A stretch of 64,000 nt of DNA from Minisyncoccia bacterium (GCA_044356325.1 JBIKWJ010000002.1:94327-158326), one strand, 5' to 3'; shown: positions 1,436 through 45,395, counted from the stretch's first letter. Made by a program: numbers and translations. Notes: generated by a model from the sequence alone, not told the origin.

Positions 1436-1700
1436 CTTAAATTCCCCTCGTTGAGGAGTACCCGAGATGAGGTTGTCGTCGACAAAAGGGATTATATACA
1501 TTAATATCCTAATAGTAGTAAATTGCTATAGTATTTGTCCTCCTTTGGAGGAGGTGGTCACTGTCGTATTTATACGGGAGTGGCCGGAGGTGGATAGAGT
1601 TCTAGTTTGTGTTCTATCCACCCCCGCCTTTTAGGCACCCCCTCCAAAGGGGGACAAAAAATATTCCCATTTAAGCTAGCGATCTTGCAGTCGCCCGTAG
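1436..1700. repeat. Mosaic array of GC-rich hairpin modules (families A, D, E, F and C)
   Basis: Contains aaattcccctcgttgagg, gtcctcctttggaggaggtg, the ccggaggtggatag ... ctatccaccc inverted pair, ccccctccaaagggggac and gcagtcgcccgtag. The same modules recur in more than 15 other intergenic sites. Confidence 0.8.
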
Positions 1701-2245
1701 CATTCATACGTTCAAAACCAAAACAGATTGTATAAGAAAACCTCTGGGCATCGTTGCTCAGAGGTTGTTATTTATATGGTGGGAAGTATTGAGGAAGAGA
1801 TTTTTAATCTCTTTAGCTGTGTGAAATCCGCTAGAGAGTTGATTTGATACCCTATCATTGTCTTGGTAAGCCATCACCTCACCAACTAGCATAAGGACAA
1901 CCTCTAGATATAGGTGAAGAGGCTTAAGAGCCTCTGCACTGTGTGGATCACACTAGGAAACTGATACTTTTCCCGACCTTGGTAGGCCTAACCCCACCAA
2001 CTAACCGAGAAACACAAAGCAGTTCCTAACTTGATTTAATAGTAGCTACCACCAAACGGGGCAAAAACACTTCCCAATAAAATTATATCAGATTCAAAAC
2101 ACTTGTCAATATATTGTATGAGATGAGGAGATGGTGGTGGATTTTGTATCAAAGGTTTTATCCCTCCATATAAACTAACCTAAACAGAAACAGAAAACCC
2201 CCGCATAGTGGCGCGGGGGAGGGGTTGAGTTGAAATAGCATTGTA

Positions 2246-2560
2246 TTAAACTCGAATAATTTCATGTATTTTTAATGTCTCTCTACCATCTTCACTTAAA
2301 CCTGCTACACTCACGGCCCGACCTTCTTGTTTGGCTTGAAGAGCTTTCTGCAACAGGTTCATACCTCTTGTAAACAACTCCTCTACAGTGATACCTAGTA
2401 CCTGAGCAATTGTATAACTTAATTCCATAAATTGCTGTAATTGTTGGCGTTCCTGGTCACAGAATGGTTCAAGGAAAACTGTGTGGAGATTTGAGTCTAA
2501 GCTTGTATCCATGGAAGGCTGTTGATACAACACCTCTACTGTACTACATCTCCCTAGCAT
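2246..2560 (-). CDS. Hypothetical protein (104 aa)
   Basis: ORF followed on the minus strand by the hairpin cccccgcatagtggcgcggggg plus a T-run at 2198-2219. No family recognised. Confidence 0.4.
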   Translation of the reverse strand: MLGRCSTVEVLYQQPSMDTSLDSNLHTVFLEPFCDQERQQLQQFMELSYTIAQVLGITVEELFTRGMNLLQKALQAKQEGRAVSVAGLSEDGRETLKIHEIIRV

Positions 2561-2639
2561 TGTAAAGGGTTTATGAGACTATTTGATATTTTTAAAATAG
2601 ATATATACAAAGTCACTCATATCAAAAACATTCAAAAGC

Positions 2640-2680
2640 ACTTGCAATTTAAGTTATAATCTGTTATTTTAATGCTAATC
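2640..2680 (+). promoter_or_regulatory. Copy 1 of a 40-bp direct repeat cttgcaatttaagttataatctgttattttaatgct (promoter-like: TTGCAA N17 TATTTT)
   Basis: An identical 40-mer recurs at 3054-3092. Each copy is immediately followed by an ATG-initiated small ORF. Confidence 0.4.
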
Positions 2681-2884
2681 CATGCTGTTCTTTTTATGAC
2701 AAGTCTCTCAAAGTTAAGAGAAAATCTTTTGACAATTTACGGAGCAGGAAAAGAATTTTTAGATATAGTTTTTACACTATTTTATCTAATTATAAAATCA
2801 ATAATATGTCGTATAAGTCCAAAAACATATAATATATTAACTCCATTAAGAGCTAAGCTGAGTATACAAAGTCGCAGAAAATAA
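2672..2884 (+). CDS. Small hypothetical ORF (70 aa) downstream of the repeated promoter-like 40-mer
   Basis: ORF track. AT-rich with no family match, so it may be non-coding. Confidence 0.25.
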   Translation: MLIHAVLFMTSLSKLRENLLTIYGAGKEFLDIVFTLFYLIIKSIICRISPKTYNILTPLRAKLSIQSRRK

Positions 2885-2889: not shown

Positions 2890-3045
2890 CAGAGGGGTAA
2901 ACCCTCTGCTACGAAAGTCCTCCTCCGTCACCTTACGGTGACACCTCCCCCAAGGGAGGACAACCTATTGTCCCTCGCTGGCGAGGGGGGTACCGCTTGC
3001 GGTGGGTGTGGACGGGCGACTGAAAGGTCGCCCCTACGAGAATAC
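2890..3045. repeat. Mosaic hairpin array (families D, G and C)
   Basis: Contains gtcctcctccgtcaccttacggtgacacctcc, cccaagggaggac, ccctcgctggcgaggg and gggcgactgaaaggtcgcccctac. Confidence 0.8.
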
Positions 3046-3053
3046 AGAGGGCT

Positions 3054-3092
3054 TGCAATTTAAGTTATAATCTGTTATTTTAATGCTGACAC
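3054..3092 (+). promoter_or_regulatory. Copy 2 of the 40-bp direct repeat (promoter-like)
   Basis: Exact repeat of 2640-2680. Confidence 0.4.
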
Positions 3093-5143: not shown

Positions 5144-5398
5144 AAACAATACAAAAATAAGTAATATATGTGCTCTTTTTGTTTATTGTACCTAAATATC
5201 AATAAAAATGCAAATGTATGACTTCACATCATCCACACTTTACTATAAATGTCACCTCTTGACATTTATGATAGGTGGGTGTATACTAGAATTCTGCTTA
5301 AGCAAAAGCAATACAAGTCAATATTATATGTACATATCAAGAGGAGCGTTGAGCTCCTCTTGTCGTATAGAAACTGTTCCATGTGGAACAATTTCATA

Positions 5399-5470
5399 GG
5401 GGCGACCTCGCAGTCGCCTGTATTCTCCGCCTTATAAAAAACCAGCCCTCCGAAAGGATCGGGGGCTGGG
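5399..5470 (-). terminator. Family-C hairpin remnant plus minus-strand terminator (ccagccctccgaaaggatcgggggctgg then a T-run)
   Basis: Inverted repeat with a T-run on the minus strand immediately 3' of CDS 5491-5799. Confidence 0.55.
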
Positions 5471-5799: not shown

Positions 5800-5829
5800 T
5801 TTCCGTGTTGGCGTTGGACGGAAACAAAT

Positions 5830-5857
5830 TTACCACATTTTCCTCTTTTTGTCAATA
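5830..5857 (-). promoter_or_regulatory. Conserved cassette promoter (minus strand reads TTGACAAAAAGAGGAAAATGTGGTAAATT)
   Basis: TTGACA, 17 nt, then an extended -10. The same about 30-bp element occurs at more than 10 sites in the window. Confidence 0.6.
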
Positions 5858-5889
5858 TTATATATCGCATTATCTATTAAACTAGACCT

Positions 5890-5985
5890 AAGATTACGCT
5901 TTATCCACCCCCGCCTTTCAGTTTTTTTCAAAGGGGGGCAAAAAACCCCCGAACAAGTCGGGGGCTGGGGTTAGGATTAGTGTAG
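5890..5985. repeat. Hairpin modules (E and F) plus the terminator for 5987-6193
   Basis: Contains ctttatccacccccgcc, caaaggggggcaaaaaaccccc and ccccgaacaagtcgggggctgggg. Confidence 0.6.
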
Positions 5986-5986
5986 G

Positions 5987-6193
5987 TTAATCTACCCATC
6001 GGTTGAGGTGTTTTTTTTCATTATCGTGGTCGTGGCCTAGAATTATTGACATTAGGGTTAAGTACTCGAGTATTCTCGATATTTCGTTAGATTTGAGGCC
6101 AGAGATTACTACAACCACTATTTTCTTCGGTATGTTCGGTATGGGAGAATCGGGGGAGATGTTGGGATTGAGATTGCGGTCAAGACTATCCAT
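5987..6193 (-). CDS. Small hypothetical protein (68 aa)
   Basis: TAGGAG lies 9 nt upstream of the ATG and a terminator hairpin lies downstream. No family recognised. Confidence 0.35.
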   Translation of the reverse strand: MDSLDRNLNPNISPDSPIPNIPKKIVVVVISGLKSNEISRILEYLTLMSIILGHDHDNEKKHLNRWVD

Positions 6194-6262: not shown

Positions 6263-6427
6263 GTATATCTCATCTTATTCAGAATTCCACCCTGTCAGGC
6301 AAGCCTGCCACCCCTCAAGAGGGGAATATATAAAAATGTACTGTACGAAAAATTCCCCTCTTGAGGGGTGCCCGTAGGGTGGGGTGGAATAACGGGCGAC
6401 TGAAAGGTCGCCCCTACACTACATAAT
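6263..6427. repeat. Mosaic hairpin array (families L, B, A and C)
   Basis: Contains gtatatctcatcttattcaga, ccaccctgtcaggcaagcctgccacccctcaagaggggaat, aattcccctcttgaggggtgcccgtagggtggggtgg and gggcgactgaaaggtcgcccctac. Confidence 0.8.
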
Positions 6428-8714: not shown

Positions 8715-8985
8715 ACTTTTGTCTACGATGTATCTCATCTTATTCAGAGATAGGAAGAATAATAGATTGGGAGTGATGTTTTCGTAGCGGAGGGTTTATC
8801 CCTCCACTTCGTAGAGGGGGGTAACTTAACTGTCCTCCTTTGGAGGAGGTGACCCCTCCCATACTTCAGTTTGGGAGGGGTCGGAGGTGGATAATAAGTA
8901 GTCTATATTTTAACTAAAAATTAAAACTCTATCCACCCTCCCCCTGCGGGTACTCCCTCCGAAGGGAGACAAGTATCTGTGGCTA
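8715..8985. repeat. Mosaic hairpin array (families L, K, D, J, E and F)
   Basis: Contains tgtctacgatgtatctcatcttattcaga, cgtagcggagggtttatccctccac, gtcctcctttggaggaggtg, cccatacttcagtttgggaggg, ggaggtggataa ... ctatccaccc and ctccctccgaagggagac. Confidence 0.8.
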
Positions 8986-10674: not shown

Positions 10675-10944
10675 TGTCTCCGACCCCTTTCAGGTTCAAT
10701 CGTTTAATTCTTTGCTTTTAATTTCTCATCCGATATCTGATTGCATCCTATTCCGCAGTGTCTCCGATTGGGATCTCAGTCGCTATCGCTCTTTGGAAAC
10801 CCACGGTTTCCAACACTCGGAGTAAACTCCTCGCTGCCTTCCTTCACGGGGAACTCCCGTTCCCCGACCCCCTCCCAGTTCGATCCTTTAAGTATTTGCT
10901 TTTAATTAATATTTCGATTTCTGGTTTTTTACTCGTTTGCGGGG
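10675..10944 (-). other. tRNA-Arg trailer complex: exact 18-nt duplicate of the tRNA 3' end, an extra junction copy, and hairpin elements ggaaacccacggtttcc and ggggaactcccgttccccgacccc
   Basis: gtgtctccgattgggatc occurs at 10758-10775 and again as the true tRNA 3' end at 10945-10962. gggtgtctccga joined to cccctttcaggttcaatcg at 10672-10700 looks like a tRNA/element junction. About 100 bp upstream of the tRNA end is also duplicated. Confidence 0.65.
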
Positions 10945-11019: not shown

Positions 11020-11084
11020 GATATCACAAGATATTATATCAATTTTTAGAATTTTTAGCAAGAAAAGGTGTTACGCTTAAATTT

Positions 11085-11215
11085 GTCGTAGGGGCGACCT
11101 TTCAGTCGCCAGTCCACACCCGTCACTTCGTGACACCCTCGCCAGCGAGGGACAGTTATTTTGTCCTCCCTTGGGGGAGGTGGCACGAAGTGACGGAGGA
11201 GGACATTCCTCACAA
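11085..11215. repeat. Mosaic hairpin array (families C, M, G and D)
   Basis: Contains gtaggggcgacctttcagtcgcc, gtcacttcgtgac, ccctcgccagcgaggg and gtcctcccttgggggaggtggcacgaagtgacggaggaggac. Confidence 0.8.
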
Positions 11216-13702: not shown

Positions 13703-13735
13703 AGTGACCAATCTCTTTGATAAAGGGTCGATAAA

Positions 13736-13766
13736 ACTATACCACACTCCTCTTATTTTGTCAAGA
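13736..13766 (-). promoter_or_regulatory. Conserved cassette promoter (TTGACAAAATAAGAGGAGTGTGGTATAGT on the minus strand)
   Basis: TTGACA, 17 nt, TGnTATAGT. Upstream is a conserved AT-rich about 100-bp leader shared with the 15340-15420 copy. Confidence 0.6.
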
Positions 13767-13904
13767 TGCGTTGTAATTTATTTATAATAATTATATCTAT
13801 TTTATCATTATTATAGCTTATTTGCTTATCTTTATACAATATTATATTTTGTTATAATTTTATGTTTTATTATTATACATTTTAACTTTCGTAGTGCTTT
13901 TGTC

Positions 13905-14110
13905 CTAAAATTCCCCTCGTTGAGGGGTGGACAGCTTCGCTGGACGGGGTGGAGTACTTTTATATTCGTAGGGTTTTTGTCCCTCCTATATTTATTTAGA
14001 AAAAACGACCTCTCAGTCGCCCGAAACCTAACCCCAAAACTTGACAAAAAAACACTACTATTATAAAATATATTTACATTTGGCGTTAGCCACGTCCCTC
14101 GTTTGCGAGG
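13905..14110. repeat. Mosaic hairpin array (families A, H, C and G)
   Basis: Contains aaaattcccctcgttgaggggtggacagcttcgctggacggggtggag, cgacctctcagtcgcccg and gtccctcgtttgcgagggc. Confidence 0.75.
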
Positions 14111-14426
14111 GCTCATTGATAAAGATTTATAAACCCTTCTTTTACTTTAGCAAAATCTATTTCATTCAAAGACCCCATTTTGTTATGTAGTCTCCTATAA
14201 TCAATTGTTCTGACCTGCTGTAAACAAGCTGTTATTCTCTTACCTTGATATTCATAGGCCACATACCAAGTACCTGTTTTATTTTTGGTAGTTGTAGGAA
14301 TAACCAAATATGTCCATTTATCTACCGTAGGTAGAAAGGAGGACATTAAAACGCTCCACCCCGTCAGGTAAGCCTGCCCAAAAAAAAACTCTATGCTATA
14401 ATATGGCTATATGCTAAATATTCTCT

Positions 14427-15277: not shown

Positions 15278-15309
15278 AACATCCTCCAAAGAGCAAATTG
15301 TAAAAAAAC

Positions 15310-15337
15310 TATACCACAAATCTTAAATTTTATCAAA
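15310..15337 (-). promoter_or_regulatory. Conserved cassette promoter variant (TTGATA N17 TATAGT)
   Basis: Homologous to the 13736-13766 promoter and AT-rich leader block. Confidence 0.5.
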
Positions 15338-15439
15338 AATTATTAGCTTTTTTAGTTATCTTTACATAATATTATATTTTGTCATTATTTTTTGTTTTAT
15401 TATTATACATTTTAACTTTCGTAAGAGCACCTTGCTCTA

Positions 15440-15575
15440 AAGATTCCCCTCTCCACCTACGGTCGATAAATTGAGGGCTTTCGTCCCTCCCATACTTTAG
15501 TTTGGGAGGGGGTCGACAGCTTCGCTGGACGGGGTGGAGTGCTTTTGTATTCGTAGGGGCAACCTTTCAGGCTCC
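15440..15575. repeat. Mosaic hairpin array (families A-like, J, H and C)
   Basis: Contains cccctctccacctacggtcgataaattgagggc (inverted copy at 41790), cctcccatactttagtttgggaggg, gctggacggggtggag and cgtaggggcaacctttcaggctcc. Confidence 0.75.
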
Positions 15576-15768
15576 TATATATTATGGTATTAGAGATATT
15601 CTTATTATTAAAACCTTAGGAGATAGTAATCTCTCTTATCTACAATCTCCTCATCTCATACAAGCTATTGACAAAATAAAAATTAGTCATATACTTATAT
15701 ATGATGTTTCACATTTAAAAAGCCATGTTTTTCACAACTCTAGCAGTACTTTTAGGAGGTCCACTCCT

Positions 15769-18611: not shown

Positions 18612-18639
18612 CTATTCAAGCCTTTTGACAAGTGAAGCA

Positions 18640-18850
18640 TACTATTAATGTCCTCCTTTCTACCTACGGCAGATAAATGGAGGAGGTGGCACGGAGTGCC
18701 GGAGGTGGATTGAGCTAAAATTCCCCTCTTGAGGGGTGACAGGCTTGCCTGGCGGGGTGGAAAAACAAAATATTAATAATAACAAAACCCTTCCACCCCG
18801 TCTCCCTACTATGTAAACATAGCAGGAATCCACCCCTCAAGAGGGGAATT
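18640..18850. repeat. Mosaic hairpin array (families D/I, E, A and B)
   Basis: Contains gtcctcctttctacctacggcagataaatggaggaggtggcacggagtgccggaggtggat, aaattcccctcttgaggggtgacaggcttgcctggcggggtgg and ccacccctcaagaggggaattt. Confidence 0.8.
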
Positions 18851-18862
18851 TAATACCACCCT

Positions 18863-19728: not shown

Positions 19729-20199
19729 TCAGTCGATAGGCTCTTCTGCCATAGGGATCTCTTCGATCCCGGAAAGAGTGAGAACAAACCTCTGCCAAGG
19801 ACGTTTGTAGTTGTAAGACTCGAAGACGAATCCTGGTACTGCTACCACCAATAGTCCCCCTTCACACCTCGCTTCCGAGGTGTGCCACACCTTAGGGGTG
19901 TGGCCAGTTACCTGGCGGAAACTGGCAGCCTTTATGAGAGCAACAACCCTATCATCACCTAGTGTGGTAACCTCAACCACACATTTGTTACCTGAACTTT
20001 GGAGCTTCGCTCCAGAAGGAGCAAAGGAGCTAAGAAAAATATCCTTTCCGTACTGGTAAAGGTACTTAATACCCTCTCCTTTAATACCAAGTGTTTTCCG
20101 GGTTGCTCCGGCTGAGTATATTTGTTCGGTCAGAGGCTCTGACCGAACATAGCCGGAACCGTAGTTTTGGAATCCCATAAGTCTGTTGCTAATGAACAT
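19729..20199 (-). CDS. Cassette ORF, hypothetical protein (156 aa), GC-enriched
   Basis: ATG lies about 12-25 nt downstream of the conserved promoter at 20211-20241 with no SD. Contains GHTPKVWHTSEARCEGG. No family assigned. Composition is richer in G and C than the backbone. Confidence 0.5.
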   Translation of the reverse strand: MFISNRLMGFQNYGSGYVRSEPLTEQIYSAGATRKTLGIKGEGIKYLYQYGKDIFLSSFAPSGAKLQSSGNKCVVEVTTLGDDRVVALIKAASFRQVTGHTPKVWHTSEARCEGGLLVVAVPGFVFESYNYKRPWQRFVLTLSGIEEIPMAEEPID

Positions 20200-30139: not shown

Positions 30140-30375
30140 TCTATTATTTGTATGAGATGATAAGATCGTAGATAAGTTATGCTTTCGTAGCGGAGGGTTT
30201 ATCCCTCCACTATTGTTCTTATGTAGGGGCGACCTTTCAGTCGCCCGTAGTGTTTTTGTACCTAACTGGCGAGTCTTTAAGTCCATCCCATACATTTTTT
30301 GGGATGGGGTGTCGATGAAATCGACGGATGTGGACAGGCGACTGCAAGGTCTCCCCTACAGAAAGAAAAAACCCT
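30140..30375. repeat. Mosaic hairpin array with an inverted pair of family-C hairpins flanking nested palindromes
   Basis: tgtatgagatgataagatcgtagataag (L), cgtagcggagggtttatccctccac (K), tgtaggggcgacctttcagtcgcccgtag at 30223-30250 and its inverted partner gacaggcgactgcaaggtctcccctaca at 30333-30360. These enclose tcccatacattttttgggatgggg and gtcgatgaaatcgac. Confidence 0.8.
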
Positions 30376-30378
30376 CGC

Positions 30379-30840
30379 TCAGCGAGGGGTGTGGGGTTGA
30401 TGAATTCTCCTTCGGAGAAAGTTCACCATAAAAATGAGTATATCAATTGAATATAAGCACAACAGTGCCAATAACATAGGAGGTAAAAAAGCCTCAATTA
30501 AGGGTATAGTTATAGACTTTTTAGTCATTATAAAAATTATATTCGCTGCATCAATAAACAGTGCAAGCCAAATAAATGCAACGAGTCCCGTCAGGGCAAC
30601 TTTTACCCAAGAATTCTTCATTGAAAGAAGCATTCCAAACATTATAATATATAATGCTGTAATTGTGATAAAATCTAAATTAAAGTACTCTTGATATAAC
30701 TGTACTGCTACTGATGTATTTAGATTTAGTACCTTTATGGTTGAGTTATAAAGTGCTGAACCCGCCAATATAGGTAATATTACGATATTCTTCACAGTTA
30801 TGAAAAATACTTGAAGAAGATTAGCTTTTGAAAGAGCCAT
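30379..30840 (-). CDS. Hypothetical polytopic membrane protein (153 aa)
   Basis: Four or five predicted TM helices. Stop is followed by ccctcgctcagcgaggg then TTTTTT. Confidence 0.5.
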   Translation of the reverse strand: MALSKANLLQVFFITVKNIVILPILAGSALYNSTIKVLNLNTSVAVQLYQEYFNLDFITITALYIIMFGMLLSMKNSWVKVALTGLVAFIWLALFIDAANIIFIMTKKSITIPLIEAFLPPMLLALLCLYSIDILIFMVNFLRRRIHQPHTPR

Positions 30841-30899: not shown

Positions 30900-31190
30900 A
30901 GGGTTGATAAGTTTTTAGTAGGGGCGACCTATGTTTTAAAAATTCCCCTCTTGAGGGGTGGCTTCCTGCTATGTTTAAATAGCGGGGAGACGGGGTGGAG
31001 TGTCTTTATCTTATTTATTTTTATTTTCTTTCCACCCCGGCCAGCAGAACTGTCCACCCCTCAAGAGGGGAATTTAAGCTCAGTACAAACCTACCTCTAC
31101 ACAGTCCACCCTCCTAAATAAATATAGGAGGAACTTAAAGCTCACCCACTCGTCTACCGTAGGTAGAAGGGAGGGCAGTAAATATGCCGA
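30900..31190. repeat. Mosaic hairpin array (families C, A, H and I)
   Basis: Contains agtaggggcgacct, aaaaattcccctcttgaggggtgg, ggggagacggggtggagtg, ccaccccggccagc, ccacccctcaagaggggaattt and cgtctaccgtaggtagaagggagg. Confidence 0.8.
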
Positions 31191-31269
31191 TATCTTTTAA
31201 ACTACTAAAGAAAACCCTTACTAGCTTAGGTCAGTAAAAAGAAAAAGAGCTCGCACATAGTACGAGCTC

Positions 31270-31889: not shown

Positions 31890-31937
31890 TAATTATCTTA
31901 TTTTTATAGCTTATTATATATCATTTGATTTTTCCAA

Positions 31938-32135
31938 TACTTCCGAGGTCTATCTGTTTCTGCTAGAATAGCAATCACATCGATAATAGAAAAATACCAT
32001 TTTTCTTGATCAACATACCAAATACTACGAACCTGTTTTTTTCAAATAGTTTGATTGCTATATCTTTTTTCATAGAATTAGCTTAGATATATTTATTATA
32101 TCTCTTTTGTCGAGAATTGTGCTATATGCACTCAA
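31938..32135 (-). pseudogene. Truncated duplicate of the dinD-like gene's promoter and first about 50 codons
   Basis: About 200 bp nearly identical to 32818-33020. Own translation gives MKKDIAIKLFEKKQVRSIWYVDQEKWYFSIIDVIAILAETDRPRKYW then stop. Confidence 0.6.
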
Positions 32136-32142: not shown

Positions 32143-32964
32143 TTAGTTCTTATCAATGAGCTTTTTTGCTGATATGGAACTAACAACCTTTTTTCCCGTT
32201 TTCTCCTCTATTTCCCTTCGAGTATTGCCCGCAATAGTACCACCTTGATTTGCTATGACTTTATTCTGGTCAAAGTTCTTAGGCTTTTTCTCTTTACTAA
32301 TTTCGGTAGTTGTTGCTTCTGCAAGCATATTAAGAACTAGCTCTAAGTTAGTCATATTATCTCGTAAATTCTCTTTTTTTAGATTTTTGTATTGTTTATA
32401 TGCTTTGACCGATAAACCGCTCCAAGCTCTTGTAATTTCATCCGTTAATATAGCATATTCTTGTCCCTTTTTTACTCCTCTTATATCCCACTCATCAGTA
32501 AGTTCTTTTCTTACCTCTATACTTTTAAGTCTTTGATTTACCCATTCTTTAGAATATCCCTTTTTGAGATATATCTCCATCAATCTATCTATTCCAAGCT
32601 CTGGATCTTCAATTTCATCGAGACGCTCCCGCGCAACCTGTGCTATCCATATTTTAAAAGGTTCAGCTTTAGGAGAAGGGATAGATTGAATAAGTCTAAA
32701 TAATTGCTCCGTATCAGCAACATCAGTAAGTCTTAATTTTCCATCCGAAGCTTTTATTTTCAACTGTCCGATATTTTCGGACAGTTCACTTCCTTCATTA
32801 CCAAGTTTTGTTTTGAGATCATTCCAATACTTCCGAGGTCTATCTGTTTCTGCTAGGATAGCAATCACATCAATAATAGAAAAATACCATTTTTCTTGAT
32901 CAACATCCCAAATACTACGAACCTGTTTTTTCTCAAATAATTTGATTGCTATATCTTTTTTCAT
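32143..32964 (-). CDS. dinD: DinD-like protein with N-terminal Bro-N domain (DNA-damage-inducible protein D / phage antirepressor family)
   Basis: N-terminal LFEKKQVRSIWDVDQEKWYFSIIDVIAILAETDRPRKYWNDL matches the Bro-N pattern. Length and organisation match E. coli DinD (274 aa). Confidence 0.6.
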   Translation of the reverse strand: MKKDIAIKLFEKKQVRSIWDVDQEKWYFSIIDVIAILAETDRPRKYWNDLKTKLGNEGSELSENIGQLKIKASDGKLRLTDVADTEQLFRLIQSIPSPKAEPFKIWIAQVARERLDEIEDPELGIDRLMEIYLKKGYSKEWVNQRLKSIEVRKELTDEWDIRGVKKGQEYAILTDEITRAWSGLSVKAYKQYKNLKKENLRDNMTNLELVLNMLAEATTTEISKEKKPKNFDQNKVIANQGGTIAGNTRREIEEKTGKKVVSSISAKKLIDKN

Positions 32965-33094
32965 AGAATTAGCTTAGATGTATTTATTATACTCTTTTGT
33001 CCAGAATTGTGCTATATGGATAGTATATTTTTGTAAAGGTCTTATTATTGATAATTCTCATCTTATTGAAATCTATATTATGTGTTGTTATGTA

Positions 33095-33473: not shown

Positions 33474-33510
33474 CCCCACGGCAACACGCGGGGCTTTTTT
33501 GTTTACCTTA
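33474..33510 (+). terminator. Cassette terminator (ccccacggcaacacgcggggcttttttgttt)
   Basis: Shares cgcggggcttttttgttt with the terminator at 33850-33900. Confidence 0.6.
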
Positions 33511-33537
33511 AGCACAGTTTTTGTGTGTTGATAATTA

Positions 33538-33566
33538 TTGACAAAGTCAAGAAAATATGTTATAGT
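33538..33566 (+). promoter_or_regulatory. Conserved cassette promoter (TTGACAAAGTCAAGAAAATATGTTATAGT)
   Basis: TTGACA, 17 nt, TGnTATAGT. Confidence 0.6.
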
Positions 33567-33591
33567 GTTCCTGTTTTGATTCTTTAGTCAA

Positions 33592-33849
33592 ATGTCAACC
33601 CTTCACGGCTTCTTTCATCAGTCCGATGCAAATCTTTTTGGGTATTGTGAGTACACAACACCCACTCCTGGGAAAAATGTATTCGTAACTGAGGTATTAC
33701 CGGGAGAGGGAGATGCAATTCCTTCAACACAACGTAATCCTCTTTCTGATTATGTGGGTATTGTACTCACAATGGTGAGGAGAATAGACCCCGAAAATTT
33801 TTGTGAGGAAGAAGAGCTTGAAGAAGGCCGCGGAGAAGAAGACGGCTAA
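33592..33849 (+). CDS. Cassette ORF, hypothetical protein (85 aa) with an acidic C-terminus
   Basis: Between the conserved promoter and the conserved terminator. Ends EEEELEEGRGEEDG. Confidence 0.4.
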   Translation: MSTLHGFFHQSDANLFGYCEYTTPTPGKNVFVTEVLPGEGDAIPSTQRNPLSDYVGIVLTMVRRIDPENFCEEEELEEGRGEEDG

Positions 33850-33900
33850 TCCCAGCCCTCACAACATACCCAGCCCTGCGCATCGCGGGGCTTTTTTGTT
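33850..33900 (+). terminator. Cassette terminator (cagccctgcgcatcgcggggcttttttgttt)
   Basis: Second copy of the conserved terminator tail. Confidence 0.6.
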
Positions 33901-33962
33901 TGATAAAAAAAACTCCTACTTTCATGTAGGAGGGTTGGGTTTAGATAAGGATGAATAAGTTT

Positions 33963-38450: not shown

Positions 38451-38601
38451 AAGATATACCTTCTTTATTTTGTTCTCTCTCTTCTCTTTCAATAATTTCT
38501 TTCACTTTTTTTATACTTGCCTTAAGAGCATCATCAAAAAGGTAAGCTGGTCTATTGACTAAAGTTGATTGATTATTTATTGGTTTAACTTTTTTATCCA
38601 T
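38437..38601 (-). CDS. Putative antitoxin partner of the PIN protein (54 aa)
   Basis: Own translation: MDKKVKPINNQSTLVNRPAYLFDDALKASIKKVKEIIEREEREQNKEGISYGRN. Its stop overlaps the PIN start, the classic type II TA arrangement. Confidence 0.4.
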   Translation of the reverse strand: MDKKVKPINNQSTLVNRPAYLFDDALKASIKKVKEIIEREEREQNKEGISYGRN

Positions 38602-38753
38602 ATTTTTAGATTATATATCTTTATAATATCATATGATAGAGGTTGTTTCTAGATTTAAATACCATAATATTTAAATACAATTTAGCTTTATTATTAATAA
38701 TGAATTTCCTAAAGTGAATTCAAGGTGAATTATAGCTCATATACAATCTTTAT

Positions 38754-38810
38754 TGTGGATATCTTTGCAAAAATCCTGCAATAGCGTATAATAAAATCAA
38801 CTTATCCACA
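38754..38810. promoter_or_regulatory. DnaA boxes upstream of dnaA (tgtggatat at 38754-38762, near-consensus reverse; ttatccaca at 38802-38810, perfect)
   Basis: Read directly. TTGCAA N16 TATAAT promoter lies between them. Confidence 0.55.
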
Positions 38811-38842
38811 GATTATCAACATCATCAATTTAGACGATTGCA

Positions 38843-40285
38843 ATGGACGAGAAACAAAGAGTTTGGAACTCCGTATTAGGTGAGATAGAGCTCAATATTA
38901 GTAAACCTCAGTTTAATACCTGGATCAAAAATACTTATCCTATAAGTATGGATGAGAAAGAAATTGTAATTTGCGTGCCAAGCGCTTTTACACGGGATTG
39001 GCTTGAGAATAAATTTAATGTTACTATTCTAAACTCTATTCAAAAGATTACTGGCTCTATAAAGCGGGTAAAATATGTCGTTCAGAATACGCAAAAACAA
39101 TCCCCAAAAGCTATTCAATCTGTTATTAATCTCAAAAATAAAGAATTAAAGGAGAAAAAGTCTAAAATTGAGGAGAAAGAGAAAACCCCATCTACGAATC
39201 CCCATTATCAATATGCTGAGCCTACTATTATCCCAGACAGACCAAGTGGAACGGCTCTCTTAAAAGATAATTATACCTTTGAGAATTTTATTGTGGGCTC
39301 CTCCAATGAACTTGCTCATGCTGCGGCTCAATCAGTTGCTAATGAACCTGGAACTCGATATAATCCTTTATTCATTTATGGTGGTGTGGGCCTTGGTAAA
39401 ACGCATCTTATTCAAGCTATTGCTAATAGTCTCAATAAAAAGAATAAGAATATTCTGTATGTTACCTCGGATGTATTCATCTCAGATTTGATGAATTCTC
39501 TCAAAAATGGGCGTATGGAAGATTTTAAAGCTCGGCATAGAGCTGTTGATCTCTTGATTATTGATGACATTCAATTTATCGGGGGTAAAGAAGCTACTCA
39601 ATATGAGGTTTTCAATACCTTTAATGATTTATATGCTCATAATAAGCAAATTGTGTTTACGAGTGATAGACCACCGAGTGCAATAAAGACCTTAAATGAT
39701 AGATTAAAATCTCGATTCGAAGGGGGTATGATTGTGGATGTTGCTATTCCAGAATTTGAAACTCGTGTGGCTATTCTCAAAAGTAAATGTATTCAAAAGA
39801 ATTTTCATCTTGATGATGCTATTATTTATGTTATTGCGGAGCGTATTCGAAGCAATGTGAGAGAATTAGAGGGAGCTCTCAATAAAATTATTGGGCGAGT
39901 ACAGCTGCTCGGTACTAAAGTTACTCCTGAATTAGTAGATAAACTGATTGAGGGAGGACAAATTCATTCTCAGCGTATTGTCAATAGTGATATGATTCTG
40001 GATATAGTAGCTAATCATTTTCATATTAACAAAGCTGATATATTATCTAAAAGCCGTAAAAAAGATATTGCGATACCGCGTCAAATTGCAATGTATCTCA
40101 TTCGAGAAGAATTAAAACTCACTTTCCCAAATATTGGAGAATTATTAGGGGGAAAAGATCATAGTACAGTTATGCATGCTTGGAATAAGGTAAAAAAGGA
40201 TATTGTAACTAATTATAGCCTTGAGCAAGATATTACTCTTATTAAGAATAAACTGTATAATGAAGAAAACCCTGTAAATTCTTAG
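38843..40285 (+). CDS. dnaA: Chromosomal replication initiator DnaA
   Basis: AAA+ Walker A GGVGLGKTHL, Walker B LLIIDDIQF, sensor motifs, and the C-terminal DNA-binding domain. Confidence 0.9.
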   Translation: MDEKQRVWNSVLGEIELNISKPQFNTWIKNTYPISMDEKEIVICVPSAFTRDWLENKFNVTILNSIQKITGSIKRVKYVVQNTQKQSPKAIQSVINLKNKELKEKKSKIEEKEKTPSTNPHYQYAEPTIIPDRPSGTALLKDNYTFENFIVGSSNELAHAAAQSVANEPGTRYNPLFIYGGVGLGKTHLIQAIANSLNKKNKNILYVTSDVFISDLMNSLKNGRMEDFKARHRAVDLLIIDDIQFIGGKEATQYEVFNTFNDLYAHNKQIVFTSDRPPSAIKTLNDRLKSRFEGGMIVDVAIPEFETRVAILKSKCIQKNFHLDDAIIYVIAERIRSNVRELEGALNKIIGRVQLLGTKVTPELVDKLIEGGQIHSQRIVNSDMILDIVANHFHINKADILSKSRKKDIAIPRQIAMYLIREELKLTFPNIGELLGGKDHSTVMHAWNKVKKDIVTNYSLEQDITLIKNKLYNEENPVNS

Positions 40286-40346
40286 AAATTAGTAGTGTTA
40301 TACTTGGATAAAACTACTAATTGACTTAATATAGTAAACAAAAAAA

Positions 40347-40371
40347 CACTCCAACCACGATGGAAGGAGTG
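40347..40371 (-). terminator. Cassette terminator (cactccaaccacgatggaaggagtg followed by a T-run on the minus strand)
   Basis: Duplicate at 41109-41133. Confidence 0.6.
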
Positions 40372-40412
40372 CGGGGGAGAGTTTAAAATATGGATTTAAA
40401 TGAATGAATTGT

Positions 40413-40628
40413 TTATACCTCAACAATTTTTGCATTTATTACTCTCATTATAGACTCGCCTCGTTGTTTTACCAAAACAGATGACCCTGTGCTTAAATCT
40501 ATCCTGGTCCTGTTGTTCGAATCGGCGACATATGATGCTGAAACAGCCACTATCAGATCTGGTCGAATGTAGACAGGCCCGTCATGGCTGGTCAGTGAAA
40601 GAAATTCAGTTTCGGTTGATTCGTCCAT
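40413..40628 (-). CDS. Cassette ORF, hypothetical protein (71 aa), GC-enriched
   Basis: Track start is the TTG of the -35 hexamer; trimmed to the ATG (MDESTETEF). Bounded by conserved promoter and terminator. Confidence 0.4.
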   Translation of the reverse strand: MDESTETEFLSLTSHDGPVYIRPDLIVAVSASYVADSNNRTRIDLSTGSSVLVKQRGESIMRVINAKIVEV

Positions 40629-40653
40629 GGAAAAATCGGCGATGTTTACAAAA

Positions 40654-40688
40654 CTATATATACCACATTTTCCTAATTTTGTCAATAG
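40654..40688 (-). promoter_or_regulatory. Conserved cassette promoter (TTGACAAAATTAGGAAAATGTGGTATATA)
   Basis: Start of an about 420-bp block (promoter, AT leader, hairpin array) repeated at 41296. Confidence 0.6.
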
Positions 40689-40799
40689 TTGTTGTTATTT
40701 ATTTTTAACATTTACTATTGTCTATAGCATTATTAATTAATTTATTATTATATTTTGTTATGATTTTATATTTTTTATAGTTATGACATTATGTTTTTG

Positions 40800-41075
40800 T
40801 CCCCCTTTGCCTGCCTGCGGTAGGCAGGGAGGGGGAAGCATGAAAGGCGGGGGTGGATAAAAGTAAGTCCATATTCTAAATTTAATATTATTAGAAAATA
40901 TAAATAACTTTTATCTCTATCCACCTCCGGCACTTCGTGCCACCTCCTCCTAAGGAGGACAGAAGCTCAAATTACATACACACCCGCCGACTCTAAGAAT
41001 TTACCAATAATACTATAGTAAAATCCACCCACCCCGTCAGGCAACCCTGCCGATAGTACTTTCATATATAGAGAT
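40800..41075. repeat. Hairpin array, copy 1 of tandem block
   Basis: gtccccctttgcctgcctgcggtaggcagggagggggaagc, ggcgggggtggataaa..70 bp AT..ctctatccacctccggcacttcgtgccacctcctcctaaggaggac, ccaccccgtcaggcaaccctgcc. A near-identical array lies at 41440-41640. Confidence 0.8.
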
Positions 41076-41108
41076 ATTATATAGTTAATTGATATAGTAA
41101 ACTAAAAG

Positions 41109-41133
41109 CACTCCAACCAAGATGGAAGGAGTG
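41109..41133 (-). terminator. Cassette terminator, copy 2
   Basis: cactccaaccaagatggaaggagtg. Duplicate of 40347-40371. Confidence 0.6.
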
Positions 41134-41153
41134 CGGGGGAGTGTTTGTGAAAC

Positions 41154-41273
41154 TCAATTCACGACTTTGTCTGCCTTGTCTTGCCTGAAAAACAAGATAT
41201 GAATCAGAGCAAGGGGGGTTGCAATGATCATAGCAACTGTGACCATAACTCTGGTCGAAGAAGGAAGTTTCAT
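41154..41273 (-). CDS. Hok-like mini-ORF (39 aa: MKLPSSTRVMVTVAMIIATPLALIHILFFRQDKADKVVN), candidate type I toxin-like membrane peptide
   Basis: Own translation. The ATG lies 17 nt after the conserved -10 and the stop precedes the terminator. The alternative track frame reads through the terminator and was rejected. Resembles the Hok N-terminus MKLP..S followed by a TM segment. Confidence 0.3.
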   Translation of the reverse strand: MKLPSSTRVMVTVAMIIATPLALIHILFFRQDKADKVVN

Positions 41274-41295
41274 GACAGTAAAATGAACATACATT

Positions 41296-41328
41296 ATATA
41301 TACCACATTTATCCGTTTTTGTCAATAG
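41296..41328 (-). promoter_or_regulatory. Conserved cassette promoter, copy 2 of tandem block
   Basis: TTGACAAAAACGGATAAATGTGGTATATA. Confidence 0.6.
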
Positions 41329-41439
41329 TTATTGTTATTTATTTTTAACATTTACTATTGTCTATAGCATTATTAATTAATTTATTATTATATTTTGTTA
41401 TGATTTTGTATTTTTTATATAGGTGTGACATTATGTTTT

Positions 41440-41810
41440 TTTGTCCCCCTTTGCCTGCCTGCGGTAGGCAGGGAGGGGGAAGCATGAAAGGCGGGGGTGG
41501 ATAAAAGTAAGTCCATATTCTAAAATTTAATATTATTAGAAAATATAAATAACTTTTATCTCTATCCACCTCCGGCACTTCGTGCCACCTCCTCCTAAGG
41601 AGGACAGAAGCTCAAATGACATACACACCCGCCGACTCTAAGAATTTACCAATCATACCATAGTAAAAGCGGGCGACTGAAAGGTCGCCCCTACGAGTAC
41701 AGAAATCTCCACCCCGTCAGGCAAGCCTACCACCCCCTCCCAATATCTCTTCTCAAGAGCTAATGGGAGGGACTTAAAGCCCTCAATTTATCGACCGTAG
41801 GTGGAGAGGG
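41440..41810. repeat. Hairpin array, copy 2, plus additional modules
   Basis: Same modules as 40800-41075. It continues with gcgggcgactgaaaggtcgcccctacg, ccaccccgtcaggcaagcctacc and ccctcaatttatcgaccgtaggtggagagggg. Confidence 0.8.
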
Positions 41811-41819
41811 GAATTAAAT

Positions 41820-42150
41820 ACACAATTCCCTACCTATTGTGTATAACCTGTGTATAACTTATACAAAATCCCTAAATTTCTGTGAATAATATTGTGTATA
41901 AATAGGACTTAATCCACAGAGTATTTTTAACCCTTACTTTATCCCCAAAGTTTCACAAGACTTATCCCAAATGATATCCCCACTTGACATACACTATTTA
42001 TGCGGGTAAAAACCAGTTTTCAGCTTTTCCACACAGACTACTATCTACTATTATACTTTATATAAATAAAGGACAAAAAGACAAATAACCTAGAAAAAAG
42101 AAATTATTCAAGGTATAATACATATATAGAAATAGAATAAGATAGAGAAG
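41820..42150. promoter_or_regulatory. oriC-like region between the cassettes and dnaN: clustered DnaA-box-like 9-mers plus a very AT-rich stretch
   Basis: Three copies of tgtgtataa (one mismatch from TGTGGATAA), ttaatccaca, and ttatcccca-type boxes. About 150 bp of AT-rich sequence lies before dnaN. Confidence 0.45.
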
Positions 42151-42152
42151 AT

Positions 42153-43262
42153 ATGAAATTTACCTGTTTGCAAGAAAATCTTTTAAAGGGATTAAGTATA
42201 GCTCGCCAGAGTTCTTCTCGGGCTACAACATTACCTGTTTTACAAACCTTTTTATTACAAGGAGATAAGGGATCTCTTACTATTAGCTCCACCAATTTAG
42301 AAATTGGAATACGAGTACATATTAGAGGTAAAGAAGAAGCTGAAGGTGCTATTTGTATTCCTCAAGATACATTGCTTGCCTATATTCGAAATTTGCCTCA
42401 AGATAAATTAGATTTAACAGTAGTAGATGATAAACTCACTATAGAACAAGGAAAGGATATTACAGCTGAATTCAAAGGTATTATTGCAGATGAATTTCCA
42501 CAACTTCCTCAAATAGAAGCAGATAAGCAATTGGTAGTAGGAAGTACGGAACTCAAACAAGCTCTCAAAACAGTATATGGGGCTTTGCCTAAAAATGATT
42601 TCCGCCCAGAAATATCGGGAGTATATATTGCAAAAAAAGATCAGCAATTAATTTTTGTGGGAACTGATGGATTTCGCCTTAGTGAAAAAAGAATTACTCT
42701 TTCAAGTCCCGCTGAAGAGAATTTCTCTCTGATTATTCCAAGTAAAACAGTAGCAGAAATTATTCGAGTATTAGATTCTCTAGAAGAAATAGAAGTTACC
42801 CTTCAATTTGGAGCTTCTCAAATACATATTATTGCCGATACCGTTGAGATTATATCAAAATTAATTGAGGGAAATTTTCCTCAATATGAGGGACTTATTC
42901 CTCAAACATTTCAAACTGTTGTGGATGTGGACAGTCAAGAATTAGTACAGGCTATAAAATTAGCTTCGGTATTTTCTCAGAATACGGTTCATGATGTCAA
43001 ATTAACCATACAAGATGATAGTACTTTGAGTATTAGTTCTTCTGATTCTCAAGTTGGAGCTAATACCACCAAATTACCGGTGCATAGTACGGGAGAGACG
43101 GGACTTGCCGTTGCCTTTAATTATAATTATCTTTTAGATGGGATACAATTATTCGGTGATAAGCCCATACAATTCAATGTTAATGATACTGATTCTCCTG
43201 TTATTATCAAAAGTCCAGATATTCCTGATTTCTTTTATCTTATAATGCCAATTCGAGACTAA
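42153..43262 (+). CDS. dnaN: DNA polymerase III beta sliding clamp
   Basis: 369 aa with a three-domain beta-clamp. Conserved position next to dnaA. Confidence 0.85.
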   Translation: MKFTCLQENLLKGLSIARQSSSRATTLPVLQTFLLQGDKGSLTISSTNLEIGIRVHIRGKEEAEGAICIPQDTLLAYIRNLPQDKLDLTVVDDKLTIEQGKDITAEFKGIIADEFPQLPQIEADKQLVVGSTELKQALKTVYGALPKNDFRPEISGVYIAKKDQQLIFVGTDGFRLSEKRITLSSPAEENFSLIIPSKTVAEIIRVLDSLEEIEVTLQFGASQIHIIADTVEIISKLIEGNFPQYEGLIPQTFQTVVDVDSQELVQAIKLASVFSQNTVHDVKLTIQDDSTLSISSSDSQVGANTTKLPVHSTGETGLAVAFNYNYLLDGIQLFGDKPIQFNVNDTDSPVIIKSPDIPDFFYLIMPIRD

Positions 43263-43266
43263 ATAT

Positions 43267-44787
43267 ATGCTATCCCGAGTACAATCAGCTGCAACTCTAG
43301 GATTAAATGGGCAAAGAATAGAGATTGAAGTTGATATGACTCAGGGTTTACCTGGTATTACTATTGTGGGATTACCCGATACTGCTGTCAATGAGTCAAA
43401 AGAGCGTATTCGCCTAGGGCTTAAAAATAGTGGAATTATTCTTCCCCAAAAACGATTTGTCCTAAATTTAGCTCCAGCCGAGGTTAAAAAAATTGGAACA
43501 GCTTATGATTTACCTATGGCGGTTGCTATTCTTAAAGCTTTAGAATTAATTCAATTTCCAGAACAGGATTATATTATTCTTGGGGAAATGGGATTAGATG
43601 GTTCAATACGGGGGATACAGGGTATATTACCTATTGCGATATATGCCAAACAACAACATATACCATTTATTATTGTTCCTGCTGATAATGCGAAAGAAGC
43701 CTCCCTTGTAGAAGGTATTACTATTTTAGCAATTAATCATATACAAGAATTAATTGATCATTTTGATATTAAAGTAAATACCCAAATTCAAGCTACTCCT
43801 ACCTATAATTTTGTTCCTAAGCCACATATTTCAGATATAGATATGTCTTATATACGGGGACAAAAGCTTGCCAAGAGAGCCTTAGAAATTGCGGCCGCGG
43901 GAGCTCATAATATATTAATGACAGGTCCTCCAGGAGCTGGAAAAACATTATTATCTCGTACTATACCAACTATATTACCGATAATGGATCGTGAGGAAGT
44001 ATTAGAAGTTTCACAATTATATAGTATTGCAGGAAATCTTAATTCAGATAATCCACTCATAATTAGTAGGCCATTTCGAGCACCACATCATACCGCATCG
44101 TCCATTTCTTTAATCGGAGGCGGGAGTTTTCCTAAACCAGGCGAAATTAGTCTTGCTCATCGTGGAGTGCTCTATATGGATGAATTTCCGGAGTTTCCCC
44201 GATTAGTATTAGAAAGTTTACGACAACCATTAGAAGATAGAATTGTAACAATATCCAGGGCACAAGGATCTCTCACTTTTCCTGCCGACTTTATGCTGAT
44301 TGCCAGCCAAAACCCTTGCCCTTGTGGCTATCTTACCGATAATGATAGAGAATGTATTTGTTCTCAAGCTCAAATTGTACGGTATCAGCAAAAAATATCT
44401 GGTCCATTACTCGACAGAATAGATATGATTATTCAGGTAGAAAAAGTCAAAACAGAAGAGTTAATTAAGCCAACCGAAGTATTAGAAGAATCATCCGAAT
44501 CAATTCGTAATAGAGTAGAAAAAGCTCGCGCAATACAAAGACAACGATTTCAAGATATGGGAATTAAAACCAATAGTGAGATGAATATAAAACAAATTCA
44601 AGAAATTTGTATATTAGATAAAGCTTCACAACATCTTCTTACACAAGCGGTTAGTAAAATGAATTTATCCGCTCGAGCCTATAATAGAATTCTCAAATTA
44701 TCCCGTACTATTGCCGATATCGCTAACTCCGATAATATTCAAATCACTCATATTGCAGAAGCGCTACAATATCGTGAAAAAGTATAA
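43267..44787 (+). CDS. comM: Mg-chelatase-like AAA+ protein YifB/ComM
   Basis: N-terminal Lon-like domain, then AAA+ Walker A GPPGAGKT, plus the Cys-rich C4 motif CPCGY..C.C, typical of ComM. Confidence 0.9.
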   Translation: MLSRVQSAATLGLNGQRIEIEVDMTQGLPGITIVGLPDTAVNESKERIRLGLKNSGIILPQKRFVLNLAPAEVKKIGTAYDLPMAVAILKALELIQFPEQDYIILGEMGLDGSIRGIQGILPIAIYAKQQHIPFIIVPADNAKEASLVEGITILAINHIQELIDHFDIKVNTQIQATPTYNFVPKPHISDIDMSYIRGQKLAKRALEIAAAGAHNILMTGPPGAGKTLLSRTIPTILPIMDREEVLEVSQLYSIAGNLNSDNPLIISRPFRAPHHTASSISLIGGGSFPKPGEISLAHRGVLYMDEFPEFPRLVLESLRQPLEDRIVTISRAQGSLTFPADFMLIASQNPCPCGYLTDNDRECICSQAQIVRYQQKISGPLLDRIDMIIQVEKVKTEELIKPTEVLEESSESIRNRVEKARAIQRQRFQDMGIKTNSEMNIKQIQEICILDKASQHLLTQAVSKMNLSARAYNRILKLSRTIADIANSDNIQITHIAEALQYREKV

Positions 44788-44988
44788 TTAAAGACTAAAA
44801 TTTTCAGCGTATTTACCAATAAGAGGAAGTTCTTTTTCTTCTCCAGATAAGGCATTAATAATTCCAATAATAAATAAAATAAGAGAAAGTATACTACCAA
44901 AAAATGCAATTAACCAACCTAATAGAGGAATAATACCAATAATACTAATAGCAACAGTAAAAACTAATAAAGTAAGAGATTGTTTCAT
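44788..44988 (-). CDS. Small membrane protein, possibly the 3' part of a frameshifted gene
   Basis: Two TM helices. A 37-aa ORF (MSEEKKTSEKIIVVPTNRQKNIAAISYIF..) lies just upstream in another frame, and a single frameshift near 45050 would fuse them. Confidence 0.35.
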   Translation of the reverse strand: MKQSLTLLVFTVAISIIGIIPLLGWLIAFFGSILSLILFIIGIINALSGEEKELPLIGKYAENFSL

Positions 44989-45266
44989 ATGAAACTTTAC
45001 AAAAGGAGAGTCTTTTTCTACGGTAAAATATCCAATAATAAAGAGAATATATAGCTAATAGCAGCAATATTCTTTTGTCTATTTGTTGGGACTACTATTA
45101 TTTTTTCAGAGGTCTTTTTTTCTTCACTCATAATAATAGTATTAATATATTTTTAGTATACTCCTAATATATTATTATGTATATAGAGTGTATGAGATGA
45201 TGAGATTGTAGACAAAAGATATCACTATGTATTATTAGGCTACCAAATGTAGCTTGGTACAAAAAT

Positions 45267-45395
45267 TGTCCTCCTTTGCCTGCCTGCGGTAGGCAGGGAG
45301 GAGGTGGCCGCCAGGCCGGAGGTGGATAGAGTTTAAGTTTTTACCTTATCCACCCCCACCTTTCAGGCTCCCCCTCCGAAGGGGGACAATATATG
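45267..45395. repeat. Mosaic hairpin array (families D/I-like, E and F)
   Basis: gtcctcctttgcctgcctgcggtaggcagggaggaggtggccgccaggccggaggtggatagagtttaagtttttaccttatccacccccacc, ccccctccgaagggggac. Confidence 0.8.

Follow-up and report, generated by a model that had tools for sequence, protein, structure and literature searches.

The window analysed here is a stretch of 64,000 nucleotides (nt) that corresponds to ~94.3-158.3 kb of the Joint Genome Institute (JGI) contig Ga0335038_0000009. It is a segment of a bacterial chromosome with 36% GC and encodes the housekeeping genes cofD, bipA, uvrD, infB, rbfA, ksgA, yidC, dnaA, dnaN, dnaE and uvrB as well as a VirB4/TraC-like cluster, two Wzy-type genes and five tRNAs. 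Its non-coding DNA is rich in arrays of GC-rich hairpins that are assembled from a shared set of modules, which we letter as in a preliminary description of this DNA. We consider it likely that these arrays are clusters of mobile palindromes of the repetitive extragenic palindrome (REP) type, similar to bacterial interspersed mosaic elements (BIMEs) and to REP doublets forming hairpins (REPINs), with the modules C and K as core units. That is, the kind of element is already known and not, as the preliminary description had it, an unfamiliar one. Here, it is unusually elaborate, is found in an unexpected host and comes along with composite palindromes.

The source organism is probably a Patescibacterium. 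We base this on the adjacent DUF4446 and infB genes, where the latter encodes a short initiation factor 2 (IF-2) of 498 amino acids (aa): among 80 GTDB loci, such pairs are only found in loci of Patescibacteria, i.e., the Candidate Phyla Radiation (CPR). A scan of the GTDB genomes with IF-2 peptide patterns provided no close genome and only relatives with 36-44% identity from many phyla, because the patterns were too specific. A metagenome scan with GTAGGGGCGACCNNNCAGTCGCC, i.e., via module C, resulted in at least 120 loci, which form two classes among the matches listed: ~78 GC-rich and 42 AT-rich contigs. In the latter (31-43% GC, mostly JGI metagenome records), C is ringed by the window's modules K, A, D, E and H, again among the matches listed, and several of these contigs are orthologous to parts of the window with 70-85% identity. 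Further relatives were picked through their KsgA (94%, 83% and 79% identity).

Hairpin arrays and their modules

The + strand of the window holds 92 GC-rich hairpins (stems of 6 bp or more with 4 or more G-C pairs, loops of 3-9 nt), compared to 16.7 +/- 3.1 in first-order Markov resamples. 66/92 are located in non-coding DNA, i.e., within the 22.4% of the window outside genes. The 8-mers TCCACCCC and GGAGGTGG occur 19 and 16 times, respectively, while 0.45 occurrences are expected for each from base composition. Regular expressions, de novo repeat finding and predicted folds all recover the array families, such that the arrays of shared GC-rich modules reported by the preliminary description are real. 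We count 16 clusters with at least two recognised modules and 16-18 arrays overall. Their summed coordinates amount to ~3.4 kb, i.e., ~5% of the window. No arrays are found at 45.4-64 kb. The 9.6 kb to the left of the window on the same contig hold further arrays, including three tandem C-A-x-H arms (where x is a variable hairpin, see below); together with the AT-rich contigs, this places the modules also beyond the window.

Parts of the window recur with 99.99-100% identity in five independent assemblies, arrays included, so the arrays are no assembly artefact. Several contig ends fall within arrays, which thus behave as repeats; they break assemblies and create spurious small open reading frames (ORFs). 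Their described position between terminators and promoters holds. Generic terminators were rejected as an explanation of the arrays: the true T-run terminators are separate, unique hairpins adjoining the arrays.

Two of the modules carry an unpaired GTAG tag. Module C consists of GTAG followed by GGGCGAC-CTTTCA-GTCGCC(C), which results in a unit of 27-28 nt with a 7-bp stem and a 6-nt loop; the full unit reads GTAGGGGCGACCTTTCAGTCGCC(C/T)GT. Module K consists of CGTAG and GGAGGG-TTTAT-CCCTCC, and its variant at 2890-2913 is likewise preceded by CGTAG. In an alignment of 13 C copies, the TAG of the tag never varies, and its first G hardly does. Over the whole window, CGTAG is not significantly enriched (47 vs. 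40 +/- 5); the tag matters only beside particular hairpins.

A covariance model of C (R1) identifies 105 copies in 455 kb, with 10 strong matches in the window. Outside of it, the 9.6 kb on its left hold 4 further copies, and relatives that were fetched independently of C hold 2-4 per ~20 kb. Over 97 distinct copies, 95.8% of the stem cells are paired; on the GTAG strand, 47 copies have G.T and 43 have G-C as the basal pair. Close C pairs (within 600 nt) are mostly arranged head-to-head (16, vs. 7 tail-to-tail and 2 tandem). A copy within the transposase ORF introduced below is involved in 5/7 tail-to-tail pairs, and 10 head-to-head and 2 tail-to-tail pairs are left without the transposase loci. 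In 12/15 cases, a C copy on the same strand follows K. Relative to the adjacent genes, C has no preferred orientation (18 copies are sense, 22 antisense, 11 convergent and 10 divergent). Nor does it have a preferred strand: on the left arm, seen from the origin at ~41.9 kb, 5 copies are on the plus and 5 on the minus strand.

The GTAG tag defines the largest REP superfamily, whose definition covers palindromes of 20-40 bp with stems of 5-13 bp and short loops, head-to-head dimers, clusters and G.T pairs (Di Nocera et al. 2013, PMC3733652). C and K share its features, i.e., a short palindrome, an unpaired GTAG, many mostly intergenic copies and the predominance of head-to-head pairs. The earlier label 'BIME-like' is thus borne out by the tags of C and K.

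A related palindrome is seen in the GC-rich contigs of the metagenome scan (L093-L212), which stem from many environments: among the matches listed, each of the ~78 contigs holds a single perfect palindrome GTAGGGGCGACCGGCCAGTCGCCCCTAC. Its stem is that of module C, i.e., a C-type REP stem is common to very different hosts.

The modules A, B, D, E, G, H, I, J and P are arms or slot hairpins of palindromes of ~125 nt and of long C-A-x-H arms. A-x-H and D-x-E have a common build, namely a hairpin, GGTG, a small variable hairpin (x) and GGRGGTGGA. Two such arms inverted around an AT-rich loop form palindromes of 105-165 nt, typically ~125 nt, which we call X-type elements. The slot between D and E holds a hairpin in every copy, with at least six unrelated stems in total, and A-x-H is often joined straight to C. 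A strict regular expression for full X-type elements yields 7 matches that represent 6 elements (one matched on both strands), a number too low for a covariance model. For X-type elements and C-A-x-H long arms, a fold with a three- or four-helix junction is predicted.

Given these units, the module list of the preliminary description stands in part: most of its motifs are found at the places described, while the list puts true REPs together with a promoter repeat and with arms of larger palindromes. C had been given as a full GTAG...CTAC palindrome and D as GTCCTCC-TTT-GGAGGAC. Neither has an exact match, because arms of different partners were fused; D forms the local hairpin GTCCTCCTTTGGAGGAGG, and GGAGGAC is an arm of a distant partner. 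Of F and J, listed as recurrent modules, there are only one or two copies, and L is a promoter-like repeat instead of a hairpin module.

The arrays of the window are composed as follows (the strand is given where one is assigned).

1436-1700: A-like hairpin, L-like promoter repeat, X-type ~125-nt palindrome (1536-1656) and degenerate C (1679-1700), with a weak match of the C model R1 at 1679-1694
2134-2224: degenerate K-like unit and GC hairpin (de novo repeats D17 and D18)
2890-3053 (-): K variant CGTAG-CAGAGGG-TTTAC-CCCTCTG, D/G composite, C REP at 3009-3041 (-), 50.0 bits
5338-5470 (+): hairpin, C REP at 5392-5424 (+), 43 bits, and a separate true terminator
5900-5990: E half-site and hairpins beside the repeated promoter (de novo repeat D2)
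6283-6421: H'-B-A' / A-x-H, then C REP at 6389-6421 (-), 47.1 bits
8772-8974 (+): K REP (8783-8808), then X-type palindrome with J in the variable slot
11084-11205 (+): C REP (11084-11116), 45.2 bits, then composite hairpin-G-D
13900-13990 (+): A-x-H arm downstream of the repeated divergent promoter module
14313-14383: short array with I within a D hairpin, then H' and B
15440-15583 (+): I-like hairpin, J, x-H and degenerate C REP (15549-15581), 36.8 bits; the array sits in an 883-nt stretch absent from the related contig L089
18634-18862: D(I)-hairpin-E-A-B-H...H'-hairpin-A', an insertion upstream of ksgA
21601-22025: composite between inverted C REPs (21601-21633 + and 21993-22025 -) that enclose C-A-x-H arms and nested hairpins
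30150-30390: L promoter repeat, K REP, head-to-head C pair (30219-30251 + and 30331-30363 -) around hairpins, then G
30918-31197: truncated C, A-x-H...H'-y-A' palindrome, I within a D-type hairpin
40794-41060 (-): X-type palindrome with P nested in one loop, and H'-B (duplication copy 1)
41438-41750 (-): X-type palindrome, C REP at 41666-41698 (-), 47.4 bits, and H'-B (duplication copy 2)
45263-45391 (+): X-type palindrome with P nested in the D loop, beside the L promoter repeat at 45189-45215

Array turnover and a transposase in related contigs

Arrays are gained, lost and remodelled among relatives. The array at 18634-18862 is a 213-nt insertion between TTGACAAGTG and the T in front of the ATG of ksgA. 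In 3/3 relatives, the array is absent and the spacer between the DUF4446 gene and ksgA is ~61 nt long. At ~49.56 kb, the window has a 16-nt spacer, while the related contig L095 features a 330-nt array bracketed by inverted C copies. No target-site duplication is found at the ksgA insertion or the L095/window junction.

Remodelling is seen at 21.4-22.1 kb, where the array is orthologous in L089 and L090 and differs by indels and swaps of whole hairpins. That is, K is present or absent, A is replaced by another hairpin, an 85-nt insertion is nested and another hairpin is swapped. Larger segments, each comprising an array, a promoter and a small ORF, are likewise replaced between relatives; around the array at 45263-45391, 686 nt of the window are replaced by 58 nt in contig L166.

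The preliminary description had proposed to look for a gene of a REP-associated tyrosine transposase (RAYT). Such a gene is found in relatives that carry the module vocabulary of the window. Comparing E. coli RayT with all ORFs of the fetched loci, we identified a 167-aa ORF in the AT-rich contig L185 that contains an HUH motif (PNHIHF) and a Tyr motif (WQYIDENP). It is matched by Pfam Y1_Tnp with 32.9 bits (cut-off 23) and by the NCBIfam 'REP-associated tyrosine transposase' (REP_Tyr_transpos) with E = 1e-19. Its top match among solved structures, a weak one, is TnpArep (PDB 4ER8). Among the ORFs of 133 sources, i.e., the window, 120 pattern-scan loci and the relatives' loci, there is one RAYT in all. 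Fetched homologues show 57-96% identity, such that a Y1 transposase of 167-171 aa is found in five related contigs (L185, L214, L215, L216 and L217).

All five loci have C just upstream, C just downstream and an inverted C within the ORF. In L217, a compensatory stem variant, GGGCGAG/CTCGCCC, is common to the internal C and a nearby external C. Two parts of the window, 2905-3060 and 11078-11215, align with the array downstream of the L185 gene. In L185, L214 and L215, the gene order is ligA-RAYT-murG, which fits the single-copy, fixed-locus and vertically inherited pattern of RAYTs (PMC5581495).

REP-like palindromes within RAYT-like ORFs are observed in L185, L214-L219 and L206. The ORF of the AT-rich lineage has one inverted internal copy (peptide ..TGDIRSPLR..), whereas an outward-facing REP-like pair is found in each of the ORFs of L218 and L219. 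In the ORF of L206, one copy on the sense strand is confirmed (peptide VGATGQSPS), and an inverted copy may be present near the C-terminus.

Interpretation and alternative explanations

We compared C and K with REPtrons, i.e., GTAG REPs along with their RAYT, as known for REP/TnpA_REP of E. coli and SMAG of Stenotrophomonas (PMC3733652, PMC8266576, PMC3479197). As in these, C and K are 25-30 nt long and fold into a hairpin whose 6-7-bp stem closes a short loop, has G.T pairs on the tagged strand and leaves GTAG unpaired at the 5' end. Their copies lie between genes and mostly form head-to-head pairs or clusters, and the Y1/HUH gene of the lineage is flanked by the same REP. In contrast to known REPtrons, the host is AT-rich (32-37% GC) and probably Patescibacteria-like, such that the REPs stand out as GC islands. 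Furthermore, the RAYT ORF contains an inverted REP, GTAG units are a minority of the array hairpins, and the RAYT is known from relatives.

The BIMEs of E. coli are reportedly extragenic mosaics that join palindromic units (PUs) of alternating orientation with a few other conserved motifs. The arrays work like BIMEs in their mosaic extragenic build only, as the module sequences are visibly unlike enterobacterial PUs or REPs. They also differ by at least ten hairpin modules, hairpins nested in loops and interiors of up to ~400 nt. Other small structured repeats include pneumococcal BOX elements, Neisseria Correia elements, Rickettsia palindromic elements (RPEs) and yeast mitochondrial GC clusters. 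By description, these are similar in their modular or palindromic build, and yeast GC clusters and RPEs are also GC-rich palindromes in AT-rich DNA. Correia elements have target duplications, and RPEs insert in genes. To our knowledge, none of the four combines a GTAG tag with a RAYT.

Pseudomonas REPINs resemble the arrays in that an inverted REP pair and its spacer form one insertion unit, as for the C...C' array of L095, and in that the associated transposase is single-copy at a conserved locus (PMC3116915, PMC3337134). In contrast, the spacers found here are 65-400 nt long and filled with palindromes, and the arrays evolve by swaps of whole hairpins.

In other REPtrons, the RAYT acts on the folded GTAG strand in vitro (PMC8266576). 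The association of the RAYT with C is observed; each further step of the following scenario we infer. By analogy, the single-copy HUH/Y1 RAYT of the lineage would most likely be the mobilising enzyme, with the folded single-stranded GTAG strand as the substrate that it recognises, cleaves and joins again. Its action would copy REPs, or head-to-head pairs with the intervening DNA, into intergenic sites, where new units may land beside or within existing palindromes. Hairpin-driven slippage or template switching could then delete, duplicate and swap whole hairpins. Insertion and palindrome-driven replication errors would together produce nested mosaic arrays that differ between close relatives. 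The untagged modules would travel with the C and K units, and effects on the host, e.g., insulation or termination, would be secondary.

Several observations weigh against this reading. Neither the window nor the adjoining 9.6 kb on its left contains a RAYT gene, so the link of the RAYT to the window's genome rests on relatives. The L185 ORF scores below the curated NCBIfam cut-off (70.9 vs. 80 bits). The C counts of the 42 AT-rich loci are biased, because these loci were found through C itself. In the covariation check proposed in the preliminary description, the stem of C has 9 double-change cells, a value reached by 0/500 shuffles, though this covariation is modest and could reflect inherited variant master copies. 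A GTAG tag is not found with the modules A, B, D, E, G, H and J, 6/17 arrays are without any C or K, and that the RAYT moves the untagged modules is an assumption. The 213-nt ksgA insertion has neither a C copy nor a target duplication. Finally, classical REPs tend to be absent from regions of divergent promoters, where some of the arrays are located.

REP/RAYT systems have mainly been studied in Proteobacteria, and none of the papers listed by our literature search mentions REPs together with Patescibacteria. Provided that the lineage is assigned correctly, mobile palindromes take up ~5% of this region, or ~1/4 of the region's non-coding DNA, in a reduced, gene-dense genome, which bears on the persistence of such replicators in streamlined genomes. 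With graded relatives, a REP within the transposase ORF and the same stem in GC-rich organisms, this is a natural system to study the growth of REP clusters.

For the untagged palindromes, two variants are conceivable, which we consider rather unlikely when taken together. Rather than passive cargo, they could be a new class of composite REPINs whose hairpins are exchanged as single strands by the RAYT, or they might have a function of their own, e.g., DnaA binding or titration near the origin through inverted DnaA-box-like arms around their AT-rich loop.

An unlikely explanation sees the arrays, and in particular the X-type palindromes, as structured non-coding RNAs or as RNA elements (stabilisers, processing sites, small RNAs) that would be expressed from the adjoining repeated promoters and be under selection for RNA structure. 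Five arrays indeed follow the repeated divergent promoter module, and the predicted array folds are very stable. The always present hairpin of the D-E slot, with its unrelated stems, suggests that structure is kept rather than sequence, as do hairpin-for-hairpin swaps at orthologous positions; yet, DNA template switching can maintain the complementarity of palindromes without selection on RNA. In nearly all copies, the E stem has G.T on one strand and A.C on the other, a shared asymmetry that may therefore be simple master-copy inheritance. What speaks against RNA is that C has no orientation bias with respect to flanking genes, that relatives with 77-94% identical KsgA differ in the presence of arrays, and that the composition of orthologous arrays changes freely. 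Scanning the window with Rfam 15, only the 5 tRNAs reach the gathering score, and the arrays remain without a family even at E <= 1, where chance microRNA-type hairpins are reported. The very stable RNA stem-loops suggested by the preliminary description lose ground accordingly.

We regard it as quite improbable that the X-type and A-H palindromes are miniature inverted-repeat transposable elements (MITEs), mobilised by a classical DDE insertion sequence (IS) transposase encoded elsewhere in the genome and unrelated to the RAYT. Their length of 105-165 nt, long terminal inverted repeats, AT-rich centre and missing GTAG tags would fit, and near-identical copies occur at non-orthologous sites (e.g., window 1463-1659 and 9894-10073 of contig L182). 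However, target-site duplications are absent from the junctions examined, and Pfam scans of the window's ORFs reveal no IS transposase. In addition, copies share flanking promoter-like sequence beyond the palindrome, and A-x-H arms often adjoin C without a gap, which gives C-A-x-H.

The arrays could also be folded-DNA recombination sites that bound exchangeable gene cassettes, similar to integron attC sites or Xer-dependent modules, which we deem very improbable. They do occur at the edges of variable small-gene cassettes with repeated promoters, one of which holds a foreign gene with 63% GC, and whole segments of cassette plus array differ between relatives. On the other hand, some arrays show no cassette change (e.g., 18634-18862), array content varies widely without a common core site, and no integrase or tyrosine recombinase family is found in Pfam scans of the window's ORFs, with the related loci not scanned.

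It is highly unlikely, too, that the modules are protein-binding sites, either for a nucleoid protein or, in the case of the E arms, as dispersed candidate sites for the binding or titration of DnaA. With one mismatch, the E arm TTATCCACC matches 8/9 positions of the DnaA box TTATCCACA. 7/11 TTATCCACC sites of the window are within arrays (47 near-matches in all), inverted box-like arms flank the AT-rich loop in each X-type element, and two X-type palindromes are found in the dnaA-dnaN spacer beside a cluster of DnaA boxes. Nevertheless, the genuine boxes clustered at 41838-42033 read TTATNCACA and thus end in A, most modules are unlike the box, and presence or absence between relatives argues against an essential role. 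The resemblance of the E arm to the box may be coincidence. For the dimeric operators put forward in the preliminary description, we find nothing in their favour.

Origin region, promoter repeats and further observations

E arms are located, e.g., at 5901, 8886, 21673, 40852, 41496 and 45346. The genes dnaA (38843-40285, +) and dnaN (42153-43262, +) are accompanied by DnaA-box-like sites, seven at 41838-42033 and four at 38594-38821, and the cumulative GC skew has its minimum at ~36-46 kb. A replication origin is probable within the window at 38594-43262. The 1.87-kb spacer between dnaA and dnaN contains a tandem duplication of ~645 bp (40655-41023 / 41295-41668) that is 94-99% identical. Each duplication copy comprises the repeated promoter module and an X-type palindrome.

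The repeated promoter module is found at 5816-5865, 13733-13893, 15305-15423, 20200-20249, 21416-21584, 40646-40780 and 41295-41419. Its leftward promoter is near-consensus, and some copies have a weaker promoter that points rightward. The module drives unrelated small or foreign genes and is also observed in the related contigs L086, L089 and L091. Directly behind a repeated TTGACA/TGnTATAGT promoter, a 313-aa ORF (20465-21406, -) without Pfam match has 63% GC within the 36% GC genome and is likely a recent foreign gene.

Two further regions are rich in secondary structure unrelated to the modules. A 156-aa ORF at 19729-20199 (-) without Pfam match contains seven GC-rich hairpins and may not be a protein gene. 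The non-coding region 33474-33962 has a very stable predicted fold (-160 kcal/mol) and a long inverted repeat; the region is not built from array modules and matches no Rfam family.

Direct repeats are found at two more places. Beside tRNA-Arg, a 66-nt repeat with 76% identity is located at 10677-10742 and 10861-10926; the matching stretch is single-copy in L089. The other pair, 31927-32100 and 32817-32991, is placed ~890 bp apart around a gene with a BRO-N domain; it consists of direct repeats of 115 nt and 65 nt that are 95-96% identical and overlap by a few bases, resulting in ~175 nt per copy.

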